DNA of 64,000 nt. Origin: Pseudovirgaria hyperparasitica (Eukaryota). The position numbers and the translations under genes are program-made. Of this stretch, positions 13,514 through 60,072 are shown piece by piece; the stretch's first letter is position 1; each line of letters starts with the position of its first letter. The notes below the pieces were generated by a model. It ran no database searches and was not told where the DNA came from. It saw only the letters and a program-made list of their open reading frames with translations. The DNA is taken from assembly GCA_010093815.1 (NCBI GenBank), contig ML996584.1. One strand, 5' to 3'.

Positions 13514-14623
13514 CTACTGCTTGTTCAGAAGCACAGCGCGGTACCGTAGTTTACCAGCATCAAGTTTTTCCATGGCTTCTTCTATGCCCTTTTCGCTCAT
13601 CTCAAACTTCTCGACCATAGGCTTGATGCCGTGATGGGCGGCGAACTCAAGCATGCGCTGATGCACAAGACGTGGTGCAACGAGGGAATTCTGGATAACT
13701 AAGCCATTTGACATCATCTGCATGTGTGGAATGGCAAAGTCACCCTCTGCGACTGACAGGGGGAAAATCTTTGCGCCGCGGTTGAGTAGCGGGATGTATA
13801 GACTCCAGTCTAGGGAAACAGTCAGTAAGTATCACATTGAACAAGAGTTCGATGTCCTACCAGGCAGAGCGGAAGCAGTGACGATGAGAGCATCGAGCGG
13901 ACGACCGATATCTGTGTCGCCCGGCTTCTTGTCCTTCATGGCGTAGAAGGAGCTAGCGCCTAGTTCCATGGCTTCATCCTTTTTCGATTCTGTTCCGCTG
14001 AATACAACGACATCGCATCCTTTCTTAGAAGCGAACTGGATTGCAAGATGCCCTAGCCCACCAACACCGATTATGCCCACGCGGTCTGTCGATTTGACGT
14101 TGTGTATTTCGAGAGCGCCAAAGACGGTTGCACCACCGCATTGTAGAGGTGCGGCGTGCTCATCTGCGATTGAGTCTGGGACCTTGAAGAGAAAAGCTTC
14201 TCTCCACACAGCACCTGTGCCGAAACTTCCTTGGTCGAGATCTGCCTCTCCGTACATCGCGCGCGACCAGCAGAAAGTGTCCATGCCTATCGAAGGTGTT
14301 AGCAAGTAGGGACATTCATAGGCCAGAGGGGAGTAGGTACCTGTCAAACAGTGCTCACACTCTCCACAAGTGTCGTGAACGTAACCCCAGCCGACACGAT
14401 CACCTTTCTGCAAGTGCTTAACGGCTGGGCCGGTCTCTTCGACAATGCCAACACCTTCGTGGCCAAGAGCCATTGGCTGTGTGCGGTAGTGAAGATCAGT
14501 ACCACATACTCCTGATGCAGTGATACGAAGTCGGACAAAATCGCCCTCGAGCTTCTTCAATTGCGTATCGGCCTTCTGGATCCGACCAGACTTCGAGCCT
14601 TTGTAGAAGGTAGCATTTGACAT
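13514..14623 (-). CDS. Zn-dependent medium-chain alcohol dehydrogenase (cinnamyl-ADH-like)
   Basis: GVCGTD, GHEGVG, structural-Zn CGECEHC, APLQCGGATV, Rossmann GVGGLG, C-terminal LRYRAVL; two short introns. Confidence 0.93.
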
Positions 14624-16072
14624 GGTGGAGAGGAGATTGGAGTTAAGCCTTGAGGTAGATTTTTTAGAGATAGTACAGTAATGTACAGTGTAAGAAGATG
14701 CGTGAAAAGTCTAAAGAGTAGGATTTGATAATACGAGAAGCAGTCGAATGCGGCAACGCCAGGTTATATACTGGACCTACGACATGATCATCATCGGATG
14801 GTCCAAGTGTATCCATGTGAAAGGTTACGGTAAACGCGAAAAAAGTCCAACATGAAAGCACTAAACACTTCAGCATGACGTCGCCCCGAACGAGTGGGTC
14901 CGAGAAAGGGCCTTCATGGCTTTGGCGTAGGCAGGGATCATCCGTTGATTTGCCAGCAGCAATCATAGCAGCAGTCTAGAGCGCACGAAGAAGAATCTCC
15001 TCGAAGCTATTGATCTTTATCGGCACATTACTACAGTCGAAAGTAGAAAAGACTGTGTTGTCATTGGATGATGAGAAGAAGATGGCTGCTGGATGAGATT
15101 TCGAACGGACATTAGCAAGGCTGCAATATCCAGCGTGCTTTCAAATCAGCTGTCAAGGATCCATAATTCTTCTGGAAACACTTTATGCAGGAATGATGTA
15201 AGTGACCTGACCTTTTCTGGTTGTGGTTCGCGGCGAGAAATACCTTATTTGGTGGTTCATGCAAGAATTGCAACGTACGTGCATGGGTTCTGGATGCCAG
15301 TCGAATGGGAATACCGCCGACGATTACCCATGAAGATGCCGAGATAACTGCGGCCTGAGTGCTGACTCTGCAGCGAGTTTGTCCCGAGCTTACTCCGCTT
15401 GTGTCCGCCTTCTATCAACACATGTCCCAGAATGGACATCGATGTCTCCTACACCTAATATCTGAGCATATCACATTCGTCAGCATGATAAGCACGTCTC
15501 CGCAAACAGCTCCAACTCCGAGCAAAGATGTCGACTCCATCATTGCCGCTCTCCGGCTGGAATTTGAACATGAATGCTGTGAACGCACGCGTTCCAGCAG
15601 GGGCAGGTCGCGCTTCTGATGACAATAAGCACCAACCTTTCCGTCAGATAGACGCATCTAGACATCCAGCATATGTTGTTCAACTCCACGTATGCCTTAT
15701 CTGCCGCCTTGAGCACTGTTCATCGTACTCGCCAATGGCCAATCCAAGCCAGACCAAGTGAGTGAGAGGACCTCGTGGGGTTCGACGTACAGAGAAGAAA
15801 TGTTGGTGTGGTCTCGTATAGTTAGGATTCTTAATGCGATGATAAGTCTAATAAATCTGCTTTTTGATCTGTTTTGCAATGGAGCAACAGACTGGTATAT
15901 TAATTATTTAGCTATTAGTGGTTACTACTAATGCTGTAGGATCGAACCTAAACGCGCTCAGCCACAATTCAAATCAAGCGTCCTTCGGTTGCCTTGTCAT
16001 TCGAAGTTCGAACACCAACACACTCTACCCACACACAAAATCATCGACAGTGATACGCTTCACATAATCAAG

Positions 16073-17056
16073 ATGCAAGCGAAATCCAAGAAGGCGTCGA
16101 CTTCATCAAAGCAGCTTAGCGATTTTGGAGCCAAGACCCTGTTCTGCTGTCTTTGCTGGCCCATTGTCATCGGCGTCTATTGCTGCAATATGAGAGTAAT
16201 CTGTGGCACTAAGCCCTTCAACGATTTTCCTCCAGCACCATTGCCAGCCCGTCGGCCGCGTAGATTGACTAATGACAAACAAAGATTCCGCCTGCAGAAG
16301 CACTCGCGCAAGGATCAAAGTCAGGCTCAGTTCCTCACGATGCTGCCATTGGAAATCAGACGCCAGGTATATCGCGAGGTGATTGGGAACAGACGTTTCT
16401 ACGTGGTTGTCGAGGAGCTCAGAACGCAGCAGAGCAAGGGCCAAGGTCGCATCGCTGCGTATGAGACGGTCACAGTTGTTGACACCGACCCATACCTGAC
16501 GACCAGGTTCTCACACGAAGCGACCGGTCTGCTCAATCTGCTGACAACATGCTGGCGAATCTATGTCGAAGCGATGCCGATCTTATATGAGTCAAACTCC
16601 TTTGTTATACCCACGAAATTCGGACATCTGAGGACGTTCGAATCGACCATCCTGCCGTCTCGCTTCACATCGATACGTCGCCTCGAATTGACCATCTGCT
16701 ATAATGACCTTCCTCGTGATGCAGCAGCTCGGACGCAAAAAGGTGTGCTCGAGCAGTGGCGGCTCCTCCGAAGCATGGCTAGCCTGAGATTCTTGACTCT
16801 AGCCTTGAGTGGCTTCCGTGCTGACCGACAAGGACCGTACGACGACCTTGTATCTCATGTTCAACAACTTGTTGCGTCGGGCGAGCATCTTCGCAACCTG
16901 CGCCGATGTGTCATCACGTGGCTCTGTGTAGACTCAATAAATCTGACCCTCAAGAGAGCACTCGACAAGGTAACACCACGGCACAATATCTCACTGCTTG
17001 TATCGGAGAGGCCGATTGACTCTGCGCAAGTAGAATCCATGGATTTATCGAACTAG
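16073..17056 (+). CDS. F-box-like fungal protein (DUF7730-like)
   Basis: 'FLTMLPLEIRRQVYREVI' and 'LLTTCWRIYVEAMPILYESNSF'; Cys-rich hydrophobic segment near the N-terminus; first ATG at 16073. Confidence 0.7.
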   Translation: MQAKSKKASTSSKQLSDFGAKTLFCCLCWPIVIGVYCCNMRVICGTKPFNDFPPAPLPARRPRRLTNDKQRFRLQKHSRKDQSQAQFLTMLPLEIRRQVYREVIGNRRFYVVVEELRTQQSKGQGRIAAYETVTVVDTDPYLTTRFSHEATGLLNLLTTCWRIYVEAMPILYESNSFVIPTKFGHLRTFESTILPSRFTSIRRLELTICYNDLPRDAAARTQKGVLEQWRLLRSMASLRFLTLALSGFRADRQGPYDDLVSHVQQLVASGEHLRNLRRCVITWLCVDSINLTLKRALDKVTPRHNISLLVSERPIDSAQVESMDLSN

Positions 17057-42949: not shown

Positions 42950-45399
42950 AATTACACCCTTAGCATCACTTCCTCTTCCGGTAATCCCGTCTCTGCGCCC
43001 GGTCTTTGGCATCTGGTGCTCGTATCCTCTTTCAGGTCCAGCTTGTTGCTGTCTGTCTATCTGTCTGTCTGCTGTCTGTCTATCCAACATCATCAATCTC
43101 CATCTCGCGCTCTCTCTTTCTCTCTCTTACTCTCGCGTCACTCCATGTACCCCTTACACCAACCATACCACGGCCGCTTTCTTCCATCGCACCCCCCCTA
43201 TCGGCCCGACTGCTTGCTGCTGCTGCTGCTTGCAGCTTTTGCTCGTCCGGCACCTCGGCCGTCGATCGATAATTAGTCAGTCTTCCTCCTCCCCCTAATA
43301 CCTCCTACTACCCCTTGGTTGCCAGTCTTTTCTAGAAATTTGTGGGAATCTGCTTTCCTTTCCGGGAAGTTTCACGGAACTAAATTTATCATTCATACAT
43401 ACCTACATACATACACACAGCCAGCTCTCTCGTCGAGATGTTCTAGTGTGGTGTGTTGTGGCGGGCTACTTTTACGCGCTGGTGGTGTGGTTGTGTGTCG
43501 TGTCGTGAGTTGTTGTTTGTGTATCGGTGTTGTTGTTATTTCTGAATGAAAGTAGGATTTGGATTTGAGAGATTTGGCTTGGCGGTGCTTGTGCTTGTCC
43601 GGCGAGTGATTTACTGGTTAGGGTATTTTGTCTGTTGATGGGGTTCGTAGACTGCTGTTGCTGTTGATGGAAGATTATGATGTGAGACTGCCTGCCTGGA
43701 TGGACGTACGTCTTTGTCTACCTACCTAGCTATCTAGCTATCTAGCTATGGATAGTAGATGCCTGCTATCAGGTTACGACTGCGTATGCACTCACCACAC
43801 AGCCAGCCTCTGCACCTCGCCTTTTCTAATTACAACAACAACAACACACATACATACATACAAACATACACCCTCTGCCCCCCAGCACACTCCCCTCTCT
43901 CACCCAAAACCCCCAAACCATCAAAATAGACCACTACCCCTCTGCACCCACACGCGCGGCTCCATCACCACCACCAACCACAGCGGTTCCTTCCCGCCGC
44001 CCACTCCCTTTCCCTCCCTCCACGCTTCCACGCGCCATGATGCAAGGGGCACAAAACAAAACCCCCCCTTTCCTTGGTTGGGGGCGGGGGCCAGGCACGA
44101 GTATGAATAAGTCTGTCGTTGTCGTTTTCAGACCCCATCGACCCCGCGAGGTATATATATTTGTTGTTGTTTTTTGGACCCTAGGCCCCCAGGATGTCTG
44201 TGTGTAGTGTTTGGGTAGCTAGTTGTCTGTCTGTCTATCTAGCTAGCCAGTTATCTGTCTATCTAGCTATCTATAGCGCGTAGTGCCGTATTGCGTATTG
44301 TCGTAGTACGCGTTGCATACAGCAGTGCTCTTGCCGCGCCCGCTAGGCAAGCGCTGGGGAGGGAATGGGCTTGCAGCGTCGTGCCCTTGCAGTCTGTTTC
44401 TGGGTCATTGGCATGGGAGGAGAGCGGTGTGGTTTGTTTGGGTATGAGTGTGTATGTGGTGGGAATTATATTGGGGATTATAATGGGGAGGGAGGTTGGG
44501 ATGAGGATTGGGATGAGAGGAATAGAATGAATTTTCGTTCTCTAATGCGGCTACTTGGCTTATGGGATGTGTTACTGGTTTGACATGAAAGGTTGAGTGG
44601 GAGTGGGAGTTGTGTATTTGCCGTGTGGGCGTGTGCTGGACTTTTATAGATAGATGGATGGATAGATACGTAGACGGATGGAAACCCGTACCACGCACTT
44701 TGGAGTTGTAACCTATAGGTAAATACGTACATACATACATTCAGATACTATGTTAACAACGCCACCACTACTCCCGTGCGCTATTCCTGTGCCGGTTCGC
44801 GCGTGTGCTTGCTTTTTTTGTCTCTATGTATGTACTATGCATATGCATATGATATACATAGGATATAGCTAGACATGCATATATAGTACCAAGACATTAG
44901 CCTCGGGACACGTCGCTGCCTGAACTGCGCCTGATTATATGCCTGATATGTTCCTAGATTGATGTGGCCTCATTGTACGTACTATGTATATGTATGTGTT
45001 TATGCATTCATATATACGATGTATGTATTTATATGCCATACGTATATACATGCTACATACCGCACGCGGAAGGATGTAGGGCAGGATGGATCAATCACAG
45101 TCAAGACAGGATCAGAGACACACTGGCTAATAACACATGATGCACAAGTAGAAAGTTGGGACAAGAGACCGTGAATGAAATTGTGTTTTTTGTCTTTTGT
45201 TGTGGTATGTTGGTTGCGTGATACTTGCATCCTATTCTGCGATTCATAGAGAAGATATTGTCTGAACAAGTCCTCTGTGCGATTTCTCGTGCTATTCTCT
45301 CTTACACCAGGCTTACAGGCCAAGGCCATACGTATACGCTGCCATGCCATGGCATATATCCAAAGAATCTCCCAATCCCTCCATCCACCACTCACTCAC

Positions 45400-48300
45400 T
45401 CACCCACTAACACTCACAAATCCCGCTGCAACGCCCTCAATCTCCCCCATCCTGCCCTTCTCCCGACCACCAACCCGCTCCCCAACCCACCCCCTCGCCT
45501 TCTCCACGACCAACTCCCAACTCTCCTCCAGATCCGCCAGCCGCCTCTCGCAGAACAGCACCACAACCATAGTCACAAATACCGCTATATCCTCCCCATC
45601 CAGTCCAGCCTTCTGTGCCCCGTGCTTGATGGCGGCATCGGTTGTGCCGAGGAGCTCGAAGAGCGCGGGAGAGGGGGTGAAGGAGCCGGTGTAGGTCTGG
45701 TGTGCGATAAGGGCTGCGAGGATGGTTTCGGGGGTCTGATGTGGTGGTGGTGGTGGTGCTTGGTTGTGGGCGGCGGGCGTTTCGTAGGAGCTCAATTGCG
45801 CGAGGTAGTTCGCTGTACGTTCCCTTGTAGGGGGTGGAGGAGGCACACTGCTAGAGACCTGGGATCCATAGTCGAGAGACGCAAACGAGCTTAGCGGCGC
45901 TTGTTCTGCATCTGATGCGACGTAGCTGGATGGGGTGAACGAGCGTGCGCAGAACGGGGATATGCTCGAGTAGCTGCGTGAGAACGAACTAGGTGACCTG
46001 CTGTATTGTGCCTGTTCCACTACTGGGGAATTGTTGGGCTCCTCTACCTCACACATCGCCTCCAAATCGCACGAGTCTGGATCTTCGACTTCTGCCAAAA
46101 AGGCTCCACGCACCCTCTCTGAGCCGCGGGAGAATTGGTTAGTAGGGGTCTCTATGTGAGGATAAGGGGGCCCGGGGCGCTTACTGCTTTGACGATTGAC
46201 AATGCTGAAGGCGGGTTCTCGTGAAGATGCCGCTTTGCGGGCCGCACGGCTTGCTAGCGCCATTCGAGGCGCCATGCAGCCTGATGGAGGGTAAGAAGGT
46301 GTTGTTTGTGGTGTGTGTTGTGTGGTACTGGGCCCTGCAAGGACGTCGAGGTCAGCATCGTCTTCGTCTGGGAGAGACATACACGCCGAGGATGACATAT
46401 CGCGCTGGTATTGTTCCAGGATGGCTTGGGGTATCATGAAGTGCATGGACTGGAGGGCTGGGGCAAGTTGGGTTTGCTCATGATCACGGTCCCGGGGTGT
46501 CGCGTGGGATCTTGTGTCCTTGGGCTCACACTCATCATCCTCGTCGTTCTCCTCCAAGGCCACGAAACTGCACCATTTGCCGCCGATCTGGAACTGTACC
46601 CCGAGACGGACAGCCTCGCGCTCTATCATCTCATCGTAGCGGCTCTCATAGTGCTCCTTGAGCGCCTTGCCAGAGTCCTGATGCTTGGCGACAGAGAGCC
46701 AGCCTCGGCCTTCTTCGAGCTCTTTGACTGCTTTCTTACACGCGAGTTGGTGGATGCTTTCTCCGGGCTCATTCAGGACTGAAATGGGGATCTCGAGTTC
46801 AAGCGGGCCGTGCTTTGAGGTGCCGCGTAAAACTACGGCTTTGGGTACTTTCTGGCAGGCTGATGGGGACATGAGTAGGTATACCGTGGTACGGTTGAAC
46901 GGGAAGAGAGGTGGGATGATTGACGGCGCCTGCAGGAGTTTTGGCGTCTCGAGAATCGGCAGATGAGAGAAGCGTGATTGGCCTGAAGGGTCGTCTTCGG
47001 GCTTAGGATCGTCTTTGTCCAAGTCCATTGTGTCATCGAACAGTGAGATGGCTTTCTATGTGCAATTTGTCAGTTCTCGAAACCGCGGAGAATACTACTT
47101 CGGAAGTACTTACACTCTCGGCTGCAGGTTTTTCTGCCTTGTCTAGCATCAGTTCGTCAAGCCTGACATGGAGTGAGTCTGCTACACGCTCGACGATCTC
47201 AAACTCTTCATCTCCAACATCCTTCTCCACGTCCTCATACTTGACCTCCAGGGTATAGTCTGTCACGTGCGGTGACAATGCACCCTTCAACATGCGGACA
47301 ACCTTACCATCTAGCTTCTCTTCGAGTCCAACAGCCTGGCAGAAGCCGTTGCCTGCTCGAGCAACACCTTCAATGAGAGAATGTGAAACGTCGTCCCCTA
47401 TGCCCAAGGTGAAAACTCGAATCGGCTGCTTCTGCTCACTGATCTGCTCGTTCAGGAATCTGAACAATGAGTCTTGATCCCAGATTTCACCATCTGTCAG
47501 CAACAAGATTTCCAGAGAAAGGTCTTTGTAACGACGCTGGACAGTCTCCTTGATAGGTGCCAGCATTTCGGTGCCGCCATAGTTGGCGCTGAAAACTTCG
47601 AGATGCTTGATGGCTTGATCAAGGGAGTCTTGGCTGTAGGCCTTGCTCTTGTCAAATAGGAAGCTGCACCGGTCTCCGAAAGAGCATATGTTAAATTTGA
47701 CACCAACCGGAAGTGATTTGACAAACACGCGCAACGCATCTGCTGTTTTCTTGATCTTGCCGCCTGCCATACTTCCACTCCGATCAACCACGAAGACTAC
47801 TTCTGGACGCTCAGACGGGAGCGAAAACTTTGGGACCAAGGTTGTCATCAAAGCTCTGTAGCCAGGCAGGGTCGGATGTCTCTCCAAGATGGCTCTAGGT
47901 GTACCGGTCTCTTTTGCGACTACTTGGAGGACAAAGTCTTTGTCAAGCTCCGCTGAACCAAGGCTGAGTGATGCTGAGGCAATGTGGTGCTGTGGGGCAG
48001 CATCGAGATCATGACTGGTTGTACCCATGTTGACTACGATGGGATGCGAAGGTGATCTAATCGACTTGATGTATGTTCCTTCTGCAACAGTAGCATCCAC
48101 GGTGATTTCGATACCACTCTTGGCTGTGATGTTTTCGGCACCAGGTGCGAGTGGGAACTCAGTTGACCCGTAACGTGGGGCAATGCTGGTAGGTATCGTA
48201 AAGCGGATACCATCGACTTCAGCATCATGTTTGAGTTCACCAAGATACGTGATTTCGACATTGATATGTGCACCAGCCGGAACATTCCCAACAGTTGTAG

Positions 48301-48715
48301 TAAAGACATCAGCGGCATCTGGCAGCTGCTCGAACAAGCCAGCCGTCTCACCTCTCTCAACGGCGTCTTTGTAATCTTTCCGTGCCCTCGCCTTCTCCTT
48401 GACGACCCCCCTGATGACCCGGTCGTTCACGTGACAAGTAAACCCAACAACGCTGACGCCATCGAACAGGGGGAAAGTGTAACGTATCTCGTCGATAGCG
48501 TTATCCTTGGGGTTGGCGAACTCCTGGGTCAGCACAGTCCGCGAGGTAGACGATATGATGTGTGTATACGCCTTTACATTGAGCTGAGGAAGATAGGAGC
48601 GTGTTGCCCAGCCACCATCGCTCGGGGTGAGGTAGTAAAATCCACAGCAGTGGTCGGAAGTGCCGTAATACCTATTGCTATAGGTTGGCCTGGCTGTCTG
48701 CTTGGTACGCGCCAT
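45400..48715 (-). CDS. VIT + von Willebrand factor A domain protein (VWA5A-like), ~1085 aa, with histone H3-tail-like segments
   Basis: VIT ('LTQEFANP..YTFPLFDGVSVVGF..GVVKEK'), vWA MIDAS DRSGS...GGT...LTDGE, C-terminal 'WELVVEKARGW'. Intron 47113-47056 (gtaagt..ctgac..tag) joins the two ORFs in frame. First ATG at 48715 (aacATGG). Confidence 0.92.
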
Positions 48716-50618
48716 GTTCAGTACTTGCAACCAATGGTCAGCACGACTGAGCACGATAGTTGATGTATCGAATCCCTCACAATGTTGACTTTGCGGTGTT
48801 TTGAAGCGAGTGGGGCTGTGCAAGCGGGTGATTTGGCCAGGTTCGGAAAATAAGGCTGAGTTTGATGAGATGACTCTGAGGAGATACCAAAATGGTGTTT
48901 GGGGTCTGAGTTGTTGTAGACTGGTGCATCAATGGAATAAAATGCGGGGAAGATGCGTATTTATCTTCGAGACCTCGTTGTTGCCTGCTGAGGAAGAGGT
49001 GCCTGGTAACAGTCTACAACACCAAGTGACCAATCAGAGCCACACTTGGCCATCCCAGAACGATGTAAGCCAGGCTTGATTAGGCATAAGAGTCATCATA
49101 GTCTTGCACTAGGCAGGATTTGGGTCCCGTCTCGCAATGGCCTAGTCGTGTAGACGTACGACGAAGGGAAGCCATGCCAGCCGTTTGGTCTTTACTGTTC
49201 ATAGCATAATCATGTCAAGATCCGGTTTCGATTTCACAGTTTGTCAAACATGAGCTGGCTGGTGAGGTTTTGGATCGTTTGCTTGCAAGCGAACTTGGCA
49301 CTGCAAGGCAATAAGGCAGCGATGTACCACGAGTGAAATCGCCTCCTTCTACTGGTGTCAACCTAGTTTGCACTGTATGGATTATGCTTGATGTTTTTTA
49401 TTGGTAAATGTAATGCGAAAAAGTTCTCTCGTCACCTGTCCAAAGTCGTCTGCAAAGCAAAGCGCTTTCGTATTCCTGTAGCCTGAACGAGCCGACATGT
49501 CACAATTTCTTGCGCTTCACCCTAGCTCTCTATCGTTTCTTCTCTCGCCCTAAGCTTACGAATCATAACAAGAAAACTTCCCTTTCACCAGCCTTCCGTG
49601 CATTTACGGACGCCCCTCCTCTCCATCGATCAAACTTCTGCTTTACCTGCATACACTAAACAGCCACCCCTGAGCCTCATACAGAATTCCCCAATTCACT
49701 ACTTAGTGTCTAGAGTTCCGTCTAGCATGGGACTCCCTATAATATGATGTTGTCTAGAGATGGTGCGTCTCCTTGGCGTGTGCTGGACACGGAGATAATA
49801 CGCTCGAGCGATGAAGCACGGTGAACAGGTGGAAGTAGGTACTGTACGAAGTGGATGCGGATGTGTCCTAATAGTGTAGATGCAGAATGTAGAACCTACA
49901 TAAGCCAGATCACTGTTTGCTTATAGTTCGAGGGTAGTGTAGGAGGGCATGCTGTTGCCCGTGTCCTGCTTAATGCCTGTACCACGATGTGGCTCCGGCC
50001 AATGAGTTACACATACAAATGCTAGGGGTACAAGCCTAGGTATGGTCTTATCGCCAACAACGTTTGTTGCGCAAACAAAGACTATGACAAGGTCTGGCAG
50101 CTGGGGTGAAATAAGGGTGTTAGACTGTTGCATCTGGGGTGAACCTAGCGATCGCCGTAGCGTAAGCTTGCGTACAACTGTTACAGTTCTGATCGATCAC
50201 TCTAGATATAAATGAGACATTGTGAGCTATGGATAGGTAATTTCTGAGCGTGGGGCTAAGAACTGCTCTTAGCTTCCTAGGGAATCTCTAGCCATTTCAG
50301 TGAGGCCTAGCGACTTATTAGAAAAACTTGCTAGCACAGTATCAAGTACGGTTATGATGAATCTTGGCTGAGCAGTCCGATTGTGTACGAATCATATGTA
50401 AAATGTAGCATAGCTTGATGTAACTTGTAGATGCGGACGCCATGCTATTTGAGCTCTCCATTTATATATCATCGTATACATCAATTTACTCTTCAATATC
50501 TGCAACTACAAGTTCTAACACTCATGGGAAGTCATCTTTGTGTCGTGCCCGTAATTGATCAAGCCACAAGTCCCAAAAGACTGTTCCCAGAATAATCTAT
50601 CTAATCATCAGAAATCTC

Positions 50619-53812: not shown

Positions 53813-56622
53813 TGTTTTACCACACTCTTGCGCACGAACGAGAATTTATATTGTGATAAGCAAAGCCTAGCACGGAAAAGCAGACAGCAGCGACAAAGAT
53901 GGATCAAAGGCTGGCAGCAAAGTAGGGACGACAACGGACGTATGATATAACCCACAGTTTAAGCATGGATAACCTGGGCGTAGAACGCTGTCGATCTTAT
54001 ACAACGTAATTGCGCCTCCCTCGCAACGAACGTTCCTACACAACGCTGAGCGCCGCGTCGGCCGTGGGAGGCTGAGCAAGGTGAGATGGGCTTGCGCCTG
54101 CGCCTTCCCTGCAGCTAATCCCCGTTCGAAATACCGAATACGGTCTTTGCGATCGTGAGAGCTGGTCGGTACAGCTTATGGTAATTCGAGCGATCACACT
54201 ATCATCATGCGCGCGATGTTAATAGTTGGTCAATCCTGTTAGTTGAGTAGCAAACGTTTAGCGAGGCCGTGGAGTGGCATTCCAAATGTGCCTCCGCTCG
54301 TAGCCTTAAGTTCTATCAGACAAAGGGATAAGAGGGCCAACACAGACCGAGGGGAGAGAAGCGTTGAGGTGGCCACGCGCGCATAGCGAAGCAATAGGGC
54401 AGAGTTGGTGATGGCATTTTGTTGTTCGGGTTTCCTTATAGTGCTGGTCTTGTGGTCTCGTGATGGTTCGGAGAGGCGCAGCCCATAAGCCAAGTCGGAT
54501 CTGACGAATAGTATTATCATTCGCGAGCTTTATCATATGATTCATGGTAGATGTTTGTATTTTATGTCATATAGAGTCAAGCTCTAATAGCTCTCCATCA
54601 CTGAACTCGATACTGCCACAAGATTTATGATCACGTGCTACAGATTCACAGAGCAAGCAATTTCTTTACCCAGCAACCAACTTCCACCATCACTCTACGA
54701 CCACAAACAGTAGTATCCTTCATTCCACTTTATACGTTCGTAATAACAAGTATCACTGTGGTAAGCATCCGCCAATCACCATTTTCTTGCCCCATGATGT
54801 CAAGCATTCCACGAATAATGAGGCTAGGTTACATTCCTCTTTCCGAGGCCTTACAGAAGGTAGACCATTGTCCTCTAAACAAAAAGCGCGCATTTTTTTG
54901 TTCTGTTAGAATACTACTGATCTCCAAAACTTCAATCGTGTCTCATTCCTCTCTTACGACTGTTTACCGGCACGCACTTCTTCACTTGTGAAACCCGCTG
55001 GAAGCACAGCGTGACAAACATTTTTCTCACGGGATCCGATTAACGTCCTCATAAACTACTGAGTTCGTATAGTATATACAGTCGTCATCAGTCCCAAGAC
55101 CAGATGTCTACGAGGAATATTTACTACCATCATGATGATCGACAAGTCCGCCAGAAACAGAAAACCTAGCTCTGGTGTTAGAGCATACGGCCGGTACGAT
55201 TTTCGGATCTTCGCGCTCCCGTGCGTGCTGCCCCAGGCCCCAGTCTGTCAGTGCTTTGGGGTTAGCGGCTGCGGTTTAGCGGCTCGATATCTGTGTTTAA
55301 GCGTAAGACCCTTGCCCACACCACTCTGTCTGGGCAACTCTGGACTGAACAATTTTAATAGGTTCGACAGGATACGGCCACTCTGGCCAGTGAGGCAGTC
55401 AGAATTCCTAACCTACCAAAATGATGGACCATCGAAGTCACATAGTCCTGTTCCTACGCAAGCCGCGATCAAAAACCACACGTATCGTTCACCAGCTTTT
55501 TCTGGTTCACATTTTACCATGTGTCAAATCAACAGAGAGGCATATAATCAAATCGTTGCATCAGGGGTCCTCATAGGGTAATCAGGAGTTCTTGTGGACC
55601 AACCATCTGCGAGTGTCGCTGCTACTAGTCGTCGATCACACGTATGAAAAGTAAGCTTAAATTAGTCAAGCCATCTTGATAGACCGCCATTGACGAGTAT
55701 TGCCGGCTAGCCAGGTTCGACTCGATCGCATTTCCCCGCAACTCGGATTACTCATGACTAGTTGGCCACTAGATCTAGTATATCATCATGCGTACTGGTC
55801 CACTCGGATGTGTTTACCAGGCGAAGCTGGCGAATCATTGACTAATTACCTCGGGAGCTGTTGTTAGCAAAGAACTCTGTCTAGAACCACAACACCGCTC
55901 CAGCGGAAGCATTACGGTGCGTTGTGTGCTTAAATATTGGTATCTCCGAGCTCTTGCCTTTCTGTGGATCTACTAGACTAGATCTCGAGTCTCATGTTCT
56001 CCTAATCAAGCATAGTAGTTAATCTTCAATGGCAATTGGACTTGGCACATTAAGCGTATCCCTCACAATTCTTGTCTTATCAGCATGTCTACCTCGATTG
56101 CAGCGGTGATTCCTACCGTTGTTCACCACATACTCTACTTCTGTAGGTGGGCTTAGTGACGGCAAGGTCAAAACAACAAAAGCTGTCTCTTCATTACTAC
56201 ACGAGTCGCGGATGTAAGCTGCCACTCCACATATAATAGGAACCTGTGCCGCCGGCGCTCACGCCACGTCCTTGACTAGTAAACTGTGCTTCAAACATTC
56301 ATTGGATGGTACACGAACCTAGTTTCTGCTTTTATAATACTACGCCATCATTCGTGTGTATTGAGCAACGCCACAAGACCCCTTGAAGCAATATTAGAGC
56401 CGACATATCATCCACGTCGCCACGATATACGCCCACCAATCTGTCTTCTCGTAATGACGAACTCCAGTGGAGCTTATAATGCGGGGTTTCAACGCCAGTA
56501 TATTCGCCACTCGTTAGTGCTACTTAAATCTTAACCAGACTACCATATATAATGGGCTGGGCCTTGTATATAAGTCTGAACAGTCCGTCCAACGCAGCTA
56601 TTATTTCGTTACACTCGCCATC

Positions 56623-58055
56623 ATGATGAAATCAATCATTGCAACATCCCTCATCGCAGAGGTCGCTCTTGTTGCTGGCTTCCCTGACATTGCCAGAAAA
56701 GTCGCAGAGCAAAGAGCGCTGGAACAAAGACAAGGGGGTTTCCTGCCTTCACTTGTACCATTTCCGGAGTTCCCTGGTACTCCAAATCACGCAGTCTTTA
56801 ACACATTCGACCCCAAGAGTCAACTTGTATCCACCAGCGGCGATCACGCATGGCAAGCCCCTGGCCCCGGCGATATCAGGGGGCCATGTGCCGGTCTCAA
56901 CGCGGCTGCCAACCACGGCTATCTCCCTAGAGACGGTATCGCAACCGCCCAGTCAGTTAACACGGGTCTATGGGAAGCTTACGGCTTGGACAAGACTGCC
57001 ACTCTATTTTTACAAACCGCTACCATGTTCTTTGATGGTGATCCGATCTCTGGGAGATGGTCCATTGGTCCACACTCAGACAAGACTGCTTCTCTTGGTC
57101 CTCTCAGTGACGTTCTTGGGAACCAGACTGGAATCTGCGCCTACGGTCACCTGAAGACTGAAGCCGATGCTTCCATTACTCGTGGTGATTGGCTGGACCC
57201 CAACCCCGAGTTCAACGGCAACTGCGCGTCGCACCCGAAGTTCATGCAAGAACTATTTGATTTGGCGGATAAACGTGCTAATGGATTCATCACACCTCAA
57301 GTCATGGCGGAACATTCGTACAACCGCAAGCAATACTCAATCCAAAACAACCCCAATTACTTTGCGCCGGTATGTATATACACTACCAAGTTACCTTATC
57401 ACCACTAATATCTTCTGAACAGGTTTATGCTGGTGTTGCCTTCACATTCGGCGCCCATATGTTTGCATTCGAGCTTCTCGGCAACCACTCTGCAGAAGAG
57501 CCGAGAGGATTTCTCACCAAGGAGGTTTTCATGGACTTCTTCTCCTACAAGAAGGACGCTGCCGGTAACCTGAAATACACATACGGTCACGAGCGGATCC
57601 CCGACAACTGGTACAAGCGTCACGCCCTTGACGCCTGGACACTCACCGATATTGTTGTCTCTACTGCCCAACAGTGTGCCTCGTATCCCTCCAATTGTCA
57701 AGTTGGAGGCAACACTGGTACCGTCAACAGCTTCAGTGGTGTCGACCCTGGTGACCTTACTGGTGGCCTCATCAACAGTTTCGAGAACTTGTCTAACCCT
57801 GACAAGCTCGGCTGCTTTATCCTGCAGAATTTGCAAGCTGAGATTCCGTCGTTCTTGTCCAATGTCTTGGATCCTGCGTCACTAAGCCTCGTCAACGGGC
57901 TCATTCCTACCGTCCTGATGCCTGCGCTTAAGGGTCTTGACATCAGCGGTACTTGCGGCAACTTGCCTCCTGGTCGTACAACTCCTGGTTATGGTGGTGT
58001 GTATCCTGGCGCGAAGGACATGAATGTGTTTGAAGGTCCTCGTGCTGCTTACTAG
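56623..58055 (+). CDS. Secreted heme-thiolate peroxidase (unspecific peroxygenase/chloroperoxidase family)
   Basis: Signal peptide, 'DIRGPCAGLNAAANHGYLPRDG', 'EADASITRGD', 'HERIPDNWYKR'; intron 57370-57422; TATA boxes at ~56546 and ~56567. Confidence 0.9.
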
Positions 58056-58467
58056 AAGTAATTATGATCATGAAAACTTAATGTTTGTATATTCTACTGG
58101 CAGCCTTTATGTACAACAAAATGGGTGGTTAATGTTGCTTTTCTACTCGGTTGAAGATATAAAGATACGTCAAGAATTAAAAATTATAATATATAAAATT
58201 ATCTCGATTGTCTATGCCCATGAGTAAGGTTGTATGTTTATGAATCTATCCGACAATTTCTGTTACATATCTTGTCTGCTCCTGATATGTCCTGCTTCAA
58301 TCTCACAATCCTTGCACGTACTCACTTTCGGCCGAGTATGGATCTGCAATGTGCTCCCCACTTTCAACGCAACCTCATGATAACAACGACCCGCAACAAC
58401 CCGTGATGGTACGATAACATATCTCCAAGCCTTATCGTATATATGAGGGTTGTACAAGCTGCCCCTT

Positions 58468-60072
58468 ATGAAACGCAGCACGCGCAAGCCCACTAAAGTG
58501 CTCTCTGAGGACGGCGAGCACCTCATCCCAGGCTCTTCTCAACCGCCATCAAACTCATCGATACAAAGTCACGAAGCCAGTATGCCCGGTAGAAACATAG
58601 AGGAGGCGCACATTCCTCTAGGTAAAGCCTCCGAAGTCATAACCTCACATCTCACAACCCATCATGAACAGCAATTCGCCCTCGAAAAACGCACCCTTCG
58701 CAAGATCGACTTGCGCCTCCTCCCGCTTATGTTCATCACCTACAATCTCAATTTTATGGACAAGACAATCCTGTCTAGCGCATCTGTCTTTGGTCTGCGT
58801 ACAGATACCCACCTGGTCGGAACACAATATGCCTGGCTCGGCTCCGCATTCTATTTTGGCTACATGCTGTGGGCATATCCAACGTCCATGCTGATCCCAC
58901 GCGTCCCACTGAGCAAGTATGTTGGTATCAACACGCTTTTCTGGGGTGCTGTGGTAGCGCTTATGGGCGCATGTAACTCGTTCGCGCCACTAGTAGTTTT
59001 GAGAGTGTTCCTTGGTGTCGCCGAAGCAACCATCAGCCCTGCGTTCCTCTTTGTGACGAGTGCGTGGTACACGCGGTCCGAAGTTCCGACGCGAGTTGGC
59101 GTGTGGTTTGCAGGAAACTCGCTGGGCGGGATTTTTGCGAGTTTTATTGCCTTTGGACTGGGGCATGTTGAGAAAGGAATGGCGAGTTGGCGGTGGCTGT
59201 TCGTGGTATTGGGCATAGCGACGTTTTTATGGGGCGTACCGATGCTATTATTCCTGCCAGACTCGATCGCTTCAGCAAAGTTTTTGACAGCGGAGGAGAA
59301 GGAGTGTGCGTTGCAGCGCGTCGAAAAAGAGGGCACGGGTAGCGCTGGCAAGGAATGGAAAGCGGAGCAAGCATGGGAGTGCCTGCGAGATCCAAAGTCG
59401 ATGTTCTTCTTCTGTATATCGCTACTGACACAGTTGCCGAACGGCGGGACACAGAACTTCCAGAACCTAGTGTTGAAGGGGTTCGGGTTCACGAGTCTGC
59501 AGACAACGCTGGTGACGCTTCCAGCGAGTGTGATTGCGTTCACAACAATCTTCGTCACCGGACGGCTTGCAGGAAAGTTCGCAAACATATCATTATACTT
59601 GATCGGAGCAATTGTCCTTTTTCCGCTCACGGGGTCTGCGATCATATATTCAGTAACGCCGTCTCGGGGAGTGAAGCTGTTTGGGTACTATCTCATGTCA
59701 ACAGGGCCTGGTGCATTACCCCTATCACTGTCATTGGTCGGGGTCAACTACAAGGGATCTTCAAAGAAAATGACCATGACAGCACTGCTATTCGTAGCGT
59801 ATTGTACTGGTAATCTAGCCGGTCCTCAATTTTTCAAGGAGAACGAGGCTCCACACTACCCGACCGCCTTCAGAGGCATCATGATCTGTTATGCGCTAGT
59901 AATTCTCGTTGCAATGACTCTGAGAATGTATCTTGCCAGGGAGAATAGGAAGAAAGATAAAACGGATGGTGTTACTGGGTCGAACAGCTCACCAGAGCAA
60001 ACCGTAGAACATACGATAGACGACGACGAGCTGACAGATTGGAATGCGAGGGGCTTTAGGTACCGTATGTAG
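58468..60072 (+). CDS. MFS allantoate/dipeptide permease (Dal5-like, ACS family); start may be 58582
   Basis: 'LRKIDLRLLP', 'FMDKTILS', 'WYTRSEVPTRVGVWF', 'PNGGTQNF', 'GNLAGPQFF', C-terminal 'FRYRM'. Confidence 0.92.
   Translation: MKRSTRKPTKVLSEDGEHLIPGSSQPPSNSSIQSHEASMPGRNIEEAHIPLGKASEVITSHLTTHHEQQFALEKRTLRKIDLRLLPLMFITYNLNFMDKTILSSASVFGLRTDTHLVGTQYAWLGSAFYFGYMLWAYPTSMLIPRVPLSKYVGINTLFWGAVVALMGACNSFAPLVVLRVFLGVAEATISPAFLFVTSAWYTRSEVPTRVGVWFAGNSLGGIFASFIAFGLGHVEKGMASWRWLFVVLGIATFLWGVPMLLFLPDSIASAKFLTAEEKECALQRVEKEGTGSAGKEWKAEQAWECLRDPKSMFFFCISLLTQLPNGGTQNFQNLVLKGFGFTSLQTTLVTLPASVIAFTTIFVTGRLAGKFANISLYLIGAIVLFPLTGSAIIYSVTPSRGVKLFGYYLMSTGPGALPLSLSLVGVNYKGSSKKMTMTALLFVAYCTGNLAGPQFFKENEAPHYPTAFRGIMICYALVILVAMTLRMYLARENRKKDKTDGVTGSNSSPEQTVEHTIDDDELTDWNARGFRYRM

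Follow-up and report, generated by a model that had tools for sequence, protein, structure and literature searches.

The gene and its product

We analysed a window of 64,000 nucleotides, the whole stretch of DNA studied here, from contig ML996584.1 (assembly GCA_010093815.1) of Pseudovirgaria hyperparasitica. The gene of interest, EJ05DRAFT_470357, lies on the minus strand, and its product, P0002, is a protein of 1063 amino acids. The minus-strand letters around the start are ctgaacATGGCGCGTACCAAGCAGACAGCCAGGCCAACCTATAGC, and the sequence reads aacATGGCGCGTACCAAGCAGACAGCCAGGCCAACC from position 48715. The features of the gene, in the order of transcription, are these.

48781..48938, minus strand: exon 1, non-coding, at least 158 nt, which holds an in-frame TGA (48932..48930) and an out-of-frame ATG (48929)
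48724..48780, minus strand: intron in the 5' leader, 57 nt, GT..AG; its joint (48723/48781) is present in one contig each of X1 and X2
48713..48715, minus strand: start codon ATG in the context aacATGG, 8 nt past the acceptor of the leader intron; first in-frame ATG of the spliced transcript
48650..48715, minus strand: N-terminal extension, residues 1-22, before the conserved Cys-Gly at the start of the VIT fold; predicted to be disordered, hypervariable in homologues
48689..48712, minus strand: ARTKQTAR, equal to histone H3 residues 1-8 and followed by PTYS (H3 references: the peptide in an excerpt of PMC3022755, and P0395)
48245..48580, minus strand: VIT domain, residues 46-157 (PF08487, E 3.9e-36)
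47336..47803, minus strand: vWA domain, residues 305-460 (PF13768, E 3.2e-30)
47771..47785, minus strand: DRSGS, residues 311-315, which with T382 and D408 forms the invariant columns of the vWA metal site
47056..47113, minus strand: intron 2, 58 nt, GT..AG, from the X1 and X2 contigs
45766..46530, minus strand: disordered linker, residues 710-942, which holds the internal H3-like piece (AlphaFold pLDDT below 50 for 710-796 and 798-942)
46225..46272, minus strand: worn internal H3-tail copy APRMALASRAARKAAS, residues 796-811, aligned to H3 15-30 (11/16 identical, local score 57)
46119..46184, minus strand: intron 3, 66 nt, GT..AG, from the X1 and X2 contigs
45403..45759, minus strand: helical C-terminal domain, residues 945-1063, with conserved W1025, E1026, K1031, A1032 and W1035
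45400..45402, minus strand: stop codon, directly after the C-terminal domain

The transcript structure comes from spliced contigs of two public runs, X1 and X2, both from one sample of one study whose library type is not on record. These contigs span 45172..48938, with the 5' end reaching 48938, and three GT..AG introns have been spliced out of them (48780..48724, 47113..47056 and 46184..46119). P0002 is the exact translation of the spliced sequence. A mechanical call of the open reading frame starts further upstream, at a TTG at 48823. The first-pass annotation had preferred ATG 48715 as the true start and had named an upstream exon as something that would undermine it. Such an exon is present, yet it is non-coding: the spliced leader has no in-frame ATG upstream of 48715 as far as 48938, and it contains the in-frame TGA at 48932..48930. 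ATG 48715 is thus the first usable start, and the start of P0002 at this codon, rather than at the TTG, is supported by the X1 and X2 contigs. The next methionine comes only well inside P0002, beyond the VIT domain.

The leader also contains an upstream open reading frame of 64 codons, which begins at the out-of-frame ATG 48929 in a weak context, spans the 57-nt intron and shares about 38 nt with the beginning of the main reading frame. Its position suggests that it may act as a brake on translation of P0002; it cannot alter the N-terminus of the protein.

The matches to PF08487 and PF13768 bear out the earlier description of the product as a VWA5A-like VIT-vWA protein. Its predicted metal site is intact, as none of DRSGS 311-315, T382 and D408 varies among 75 aligned members. 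An AlphaFold2 run on 75 aligned sequences (mean pLDDT 75.8, pTM 0.74) gave a confident core at about residues 22-709, including a VIT beta-sandwich that begins at residue 25 with high pLDDT, and a helical C-terminal domain at about 945-1063, with high pLDDT in the helices (954-1062). Residues 1-21 and 710-942 have a pLDDT below 50, which puts both H3-like pieces in regions predicted to be disordered, the usual setting of short linear motifs. No signal peptide was apparent by eye, the first 22 residues being polar and basic without a hydrophobic run. The same arrangement (a VIT beta-sandwich near the N-terminus, then vWA, linker and helical C-terminal domain, with no signal peptide) is found in human VWA5A/BCSC-1 and Dictyostelium Vwa1, members of the intracellular clade B2 of PMC10539598, as far as the available portions of that paper describe them. 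Unlike histone H3, P0002 has no histone fold: neither half of the protein matches PF00125 at E up to 0.01, and only tail-like segments are present.

Among the neighbouring genes with domain assignments in the window, none has a link to chromatin. They encode a zinc alcohol dehydrogenase (13832-14710), a DUF7730 protein (15932-17056), a protein with a fungal transcription-factor domain (35130-35711), a family-2 (peroxygenase-type) peroxidase (56518-57408) and an MFS transporter (58447-60072). The window includes 280 N. A scan of the 64 kb for further H3-like coding words found none but KQTAR, in another frame, at 44399.

The H3-like N-terminus and its recurrence among relatives

Directly after the start methionine, P0002 is identical to H3 1-8 at 8/8 positions. 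This exact M-ARTKQTAR had been reported in the first-pass annotation, together with a proline in the place of H3 K9, and both can be read from the minus-strand letters and their translation. The N-terminal peptide of H3 is printed in an excerpt of PMC3022755, and two fungal H3 records, P0395 and P0397, begin with this tail. These two (946 and 809 aa) are gene models in which a true H3 is joined to the gene next to it, giving PF00125 together with other domains, and the fusions are probably annotation errors.

An initiator methionine is cleaved before alanine and, with this removal assumed, the mature protein should expose Ala1-Arg2-Thr3-Lys4. The new N-terminal alanine could be acetylated, which would block readers needing a free amine; the N-terminus of H3 itself stays free. 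The Met-removal rule is also applied in the available portions of PMC8166343, which describe proteins with an N-terminal M-Z-R-x-K, the H3TM sequence pattern, that bind H3K4 readers and NuRD in vitro. P0002 has this pattern as M-A-R-T-K, at a start set by the spliced contigs and with Met removal taken from the rule. Its first 40 residues had no match among PDB sequences at E up to 10. From residue frequencies we estimate the chance of an exact N-terminal 8-mer at about 3e-10 per protein; the recurrence of the tip in relatives is the stronger argument against chance.

The best relatives of P0002 are 66 per cent identical over the first 560 residues and 73 per cent over the first 200. Only one of the first 120 homologues sampled, P0002 itself, carried the motif, and the extension before the conserved Cys-Gly varies greatly in homologues, with lengths of 3-50 residues. 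A wider sample contained exact MARTKQTAR in P0126 and P0242 and near-exact tips in P0268 (MARTKQRAR), P0300 from Cylindrodendrum (MARTKQTLRK) and P0236 (MTRTKQSAR). Variants with asparagine head P0169, P0211 and P0288 (MVRTN[QE]PAR), P0009 and P0245 (Coniosporium; MTRTNEPAR) and P0253 (MVRTNEKAR), and P0374 (Thozetella) begins MARTKMTGS. Two metagenome loci, L005 and L039, encode MARTRQTAR and MRTNLPAR. The motif that recurs in VIT-vWA proteins of Pezizomycotina is M-[ATV]-R-T-[KN]-[QE]-x-A-R, and in six tip carriers that are only 49-50 per cent identical overall, M1, R3, T4, A8 and R9 (counted with the Met) are invariant.

For counting, we kept 291 of 390 proteins, namely those with at least 750 aa, an M start and a YLPQ-like anchor within residues 1-100; this filter removed, among others, the tip carrier P0300. 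Fourteen of the 291 match H3 1-8 at 4/8 or more, and the other 277 stand at 3/8 or less. In the dereplicated set, 11 of 282 reach 4/8, against a mean of 0.5 for shuffled 8-mers, with 4 of 2000 shuffles reaching 11. Absence from close orthologues had been proposed as evidence against the mimic, and here the outcome is divided: the tip is without a match in about 95 per cent of homologues, and it recurs in several distant lineages.

We placed the tips on a FastTree phylogeny built from the folded core, an alignment of 291 rows and 712 columns without those of the motif. Carriers fall at about nine places on the tree, and the trait needs nine changes. P0002 is on a long, poorly placed branch and is not sister to P0126, which is nested among Sordariales proteins starting MAPH or MARY. 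In many members the conserved Cys comes immediately after a start MTRH, MARY or MVRTY. Comparing the P0002 gene with L005, the codons differ synonymously at 6/8 motif positions and the residues agree at 7/8; these codon differences speak against a recent DNA copy and fit selection or convergence. Among the metagenome loci whose N-terminus was examined, an ART-type tip is present in 1/67 and an MRT[NS]-type tip in two or three more. A search of 67 metagenome loci for a separate micro-exon, covering every frame of the 700 nt upstream, turned up the motif only in L005, where it is in frame.

The N-termini of the relatives are gene-model predictions, and in several carriers the conserved Cys is closely preceded by a second Met. 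This Met lies 3-5 residues before that Cys in most tip carriers (P0236, P0169, P0009, P0268 and P0253). The sister proteins P0004, P0200 and P0254 are annotated from this second Met, and L039 has an in-frame MRTNLPARSS upstream of the annotated start of P0254. It is therefore likely that starts have been mis-called or that a long and a short isoform exist, and the tip is perhaps commoner than the gene models suggest.

Internal copies of the H3 tail and their lysines

A second H3-like string, in the C-terminal half, first became visible in the consensus of six tip carriers. In P0002 it sits within exon 3 of the spliced contigs and has Met at K18, Arg at K23 and K27 kept. Relatives carry better copies. 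Residues 783-802 of P0200 equal yeast H3 (PDB 1id3_A, positions 15-34) at 20/20 (E 1.8e-6), and the best PDB matches of this copy are H3 chains. P0404 from Trichoderma lentiforme matches H3 5-34 exactly, and P0398 (Periconia) matches H3 6-38 save at position 9. The best case is P0392 from Ophiobolus disseminans, with 34/40 identity to H3 1-40; of the six mismatches, four are at lysines (K4L, K9M, K14Q and K37T).

Scored against the H3 tail of P0395, 40 of 396 family proteins have an internal copy with a local score of at least 54, making 37 distinct copies. With shuffled H3 tails, none of the 396 proteins reaches 54 in any of 10 shuffles. This count left out P0001, two artificial two-hybrid fusions, the two H3 mis-fusions and three members of a second family. 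A protein search with P0200 776-820, from which 42 candidates were scored, missed the known carriers P0236, P0211 and P0136 and is to be read as a sample, not a census. The named carriers of internal copies belong to Sordariomycetes, Dothideomycetes and Lecanoromycetes, and one further carrier clade is probably Eurotiomycetes, because its neighbours are Chaetothyriales. Internal copies are present in 2/77 metagenome loci, L005 (14/22) and L039 (11/22). By these alignments, the internal H3 copies cannot be chance, and the H3 mimicry in the VIT-vWA family is real, backed as it is by 20-40 residue copies in relatives.

One VIT-vWA protein with an internal H3-like copy, P0388, is filed under cork oak (Quercus suber) and clusters with fungal proteins; it is probably a fungal contamination of the Quercus suber assembly. 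We also encountered a second fungal family with an internal H3-tail copy and no Pfam domain (P0396, P0400 and P0401). Its members come from Hypocreales (Cosmosporella, Clonostachys byssicola), are about 980 aa long, start MATSGSVFSETLQ and carry the copy around residue 430. Fungal non-histone proteins outside the VIT-vWA family may thus also bear copies of the H3 tail.

Before relatedness is taken into account, tip and internal copy tend to occur together. The dereplicated counts are 8 proteins with both, 3 with the tip only, 15 with the internal copy only and 256 with neither (Fisher p 8e-8, ignoring relatedness). With relatedness controlled, the eight independent pairs comprise about four that change the same way, none that change in opposite ways and four that are unchanged, which is not significant (sign test p 0.125). 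The two metagenome loci with an internal copy, the only ones among the 77, both carry the tip as well.

The first-pass annotation had laid its emphasis on K4, and this emphasis is not upheld by the pattern of conservation. In the tips, R2 and T3 never vary and position 4 is K, N, R or S: the MVRTN and MTRTN lineages have N there, L005 has R and L075 has S, while Ala-starting tips keep K4 in 5/6 lineages. The internal copies (relatedness ignored) keep K4 in only 3/17 cases, K9 in 7/27 and K14 in 13/30; K23 is kept in 22/37. Across all K positions of the internal copies, identity is 96/208. Their best-conserved stretch is H3 15-31, and conservation runs on to 28-33; within 15-31, K18, K23 and K27 are kept at 62 per cent versus 84 per cent at the other positions (relatedness ignored). 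On these counts the lysines, K4 included, appear to be the least conserved positions of the internal copies, which we treat as a lead and not a test.

The lysines are replaced by Met, Ile or Leu at K9, by Met at K18 and K23 and by Arg at K27. Other family members keep the lysines. Individual cases in which the surrounding H3 context is kept include K9 to Met in P0392 and P0334, K9 to Ile in P0403 and P0374, K23 to Met in P0136, P0383 and L005 (L005:5497-5562) and K18 to Met in the Pseudovirgaria protein. Methionine or isoleucine at an acceptor lysine in H3 context is the kind of change that traps SET-domain methyltransferases.

Possible roles of the H3-like pieces

We read P0002, with a confidence slightly above even, as an intracellular scaffold of the VWA5A/Vwa1 type whose two-part H3-tail mimic docks to proteins that hold the H3 tail. 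After Met removal, the true N-terminus would be ARTKQTAR on a disordered 21-residue tail. The Pseudovirgaria mimic would then consist of the exact H3 1-8 at a free N-terminus and the worn H3 15-30 at residues 796-811, both serving as short linear motifs that fill pockets normally holding the H3 tail. Candidate partners of the free Ala1-Arg2-Thr3 end would be WD40 and PHD-type binders, and those of the H3 12-30 part would be importins, chaperones and modifying enzymes. The scaffold would in this way be docked to, or titrate, the histone-tail machinery. The data show the start, the matches in sequence, how they recur and the predicted disorder; Met removal, the free N-terminus, any binding and any chromatin effect we infer. 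Docking of disordered pieces to H3-tail-holding proteins is the most economical mechanism. A docking or decoy role seems more likely than that of an H3K4 methylation substrate, because the acceptor lysines are the least conserved positions, and a decoy or pseudo-substrate role would fit the lysine pattern best. In Dictyostelium, Vwa1 is described as a cytoplasmic protein that binds a WD40 F-box protein (available portions of PMC10539598), and a cytoplasmic relative would, by analogy, count against docking to H3-tail partners.

It is unlikely, in our judgement, that the tip is a neutral accident, in which a freely drifting extension without function spells H3 1-8 by coincidence. The family start M-[ATV]-R-(T) would ease such an accident, part of the motif coming free in the many members that begin MTRH, MARY or MVRTY before the conserved Cys. 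The extension is hypervariable, with 277/291 at 3/8 or less, and there is no close relative (best 66-73 per cent identity) to show conservation. However, an accident would have had to yield the exact 8-mer again in a non-sister lineage and to leave R2, T3, A7 and R8 invariant in six carriers that are 49-50 per cent identical overall. It would also have to account for agreement in residues between Pseudovirgaria and L005 where the codons differ, and for the association of the tip with internal H3 copies that cannot be chance.

Less likely again is that the H3-like pieces serve targeting only, as a borrowed import signal (for Kap123, Kap104 and Kap121-type importins) of a 115-kDa scaffold, and leave chromatin enzymes unaffected. 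The segment of H3 bound by importins is 11-27, where K14 and K23 occupy the pockets of Kap123 (excerpts of PMC7752055), and the best-conserved stretch of the internal copies, 15-31, overlaps this segment; human VWA5A, moreover, is reported to be mainly nuclear (excerpts of PMC12540739). Yet the two lysines that fill the Kap123 pockets are among the less conserved positions (K14 13/30, K23 22/37) and are absent or changed in the Pseudovirgaria protein, whose stretch matching the import-signal region, APRMALASRAARK, is without K14 and has R at position 23. In relatives, a 16-residue basic stretch of this region is kept. Conservation also continues to 28-33, past the importin core. A pure import signal is disfavoured because K14 and K23 are poorly conserved and because conservation extends beyond residue 27. 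The N-terminal tip is in any case unexplained by import, since the importins tested bind within H3 11-27, some also 35-40, and residues 1-8 are not among the binding segments in those excerpts of PMC7752055.

The version first proposed, a true H3K4 mimic methylated by Set1/COMPASS and read by PHD fingers, haspin or demethylases, we regard as improbable: the tip follows the three H3TM rules (Met removal, R2, K4) and goes beyond them with 8/8 identity, three human H3TM peptides are methylated at K4 in vitro by H3K4 methyltransferases (excerpts of PMC8166343) and K4 is kept in 5/6 lineages of Ala-starting tips, but the idea of a K4 substrate is disfavoured because K4 is poorly conserved, with N (MVRTN, MTRTN), R (L005) or S (L075) at position 4 and only 3/17 internal copies keeping it.

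Returning to the docking reading, a more far-reaching form of it can be stated, which we offer as tentative and rather doubtful. EZHIP is a pseudo-substrate that traps or titrates PRC2. In a similar way, VWA5A-like proteins of Pezizomycotina might be endogenous H3-tail decoys whose tail copy would have persisted over hundreds of millions of years, with replacement falling preferentially on the lysines that can be modified (K9 to Met or Ile, K18 or K23 to Met, K27 to Arg). They would act as pseudo-substrates trapping or titrating H3 methyltransferases, acetyltransferases and readers. A few lineages, Pseudovirgaria among them, would have placed H3 1-8 at their own N-terminus as well, the sole site at which readers of the free H3 end could be engaged, and chromatin enzymes would be linked through the metal-binding vWA scaffold to a complex for signalling in the cytoplasm or nucleus.

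Several known systems share parts of this arrangement. The H3TMs (VRK1, PCLAF/PAF15, BCL11A/B, SALL, FOG, MEF2 and TSHZ; Chen et al. 2021, excerpts of PMC8166343) likewise have Met, a small residue and R-x-K at the true N-terminus of a non-histone protein. They differ in that only M-Z-R-x-K is shared with H3, versus 8/8 here, and in their hosts, which are transcription factors or a kinase; here the host is a fungal VIT-vWA scaffold from a family that also has a long internal copy. EZHIP and K-to-M oncohistone peptides (excerpts of PMC12713659 and PMC8167812) resemble the internal copies as H3-like peptides with a replaced acceptor lysine, EZHIP within a cellular protein. The VIT-vWA copies are far longer (up to 40 residues), belong to another family and kingdom and keep their lysines in many members. 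The ARKS/ARKT mimics of G9a and SETDB1 and the viral mimics NS1 (influenza) and ORF8 (SARS-CoV-2) are also H3-like linear motifs in disordered regions of non-histone proteins. In the sources as excerpted, these motifs have 4-6 residues, whereas the family described here has an exact 8-residue tip and, in relatives, copies of 20-40 residues; unlike them, the tip is at the sole site able to imitate the free amino end of H3. The H3 tail itself is both import signal and modification platform (excerpts of PMC7752055); P0002 is identical to it at residues 1-8, and relatives reach 34/40.

The available portions of PMC10539598 and PMC12540739, which deal with Vwa1 and VWA5A, make no mention of H3-like sequences, and the word 'histone' occurs 0 times in those of PMC12540739. 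In the limited library searched, we found no description of H3-tail mimicry in VIT-vWA or VWA5A proteins, in agreement with the first-pass annotation, which was aware of none for this family. The tip and the longer internal copies together point to what would be an undescribed family of cellular histone-tail mimics.

Histone mimicry has so far concerned mostly viruses and a few animal proteins, with motifs of 4-6 residues. Here a widespread fungal family of unknown function has copies of the H3 tail of 8 to 40 residues, some at the true N-terminus, and many of the copies are substituted at exactly the lysines that chromatin enzymes modify. If the copies do not work, they would still represent a striking long-term retention of histone-derived sequence. 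If they do, they would give a first molecular handle on the VWA5A/BCSC-1 family and would bring to light a regulator, made by the cell itself, of the enzymes that act on histone tails in fungi, among them genera of industrial use or associated with plants, such as Trichoderma.
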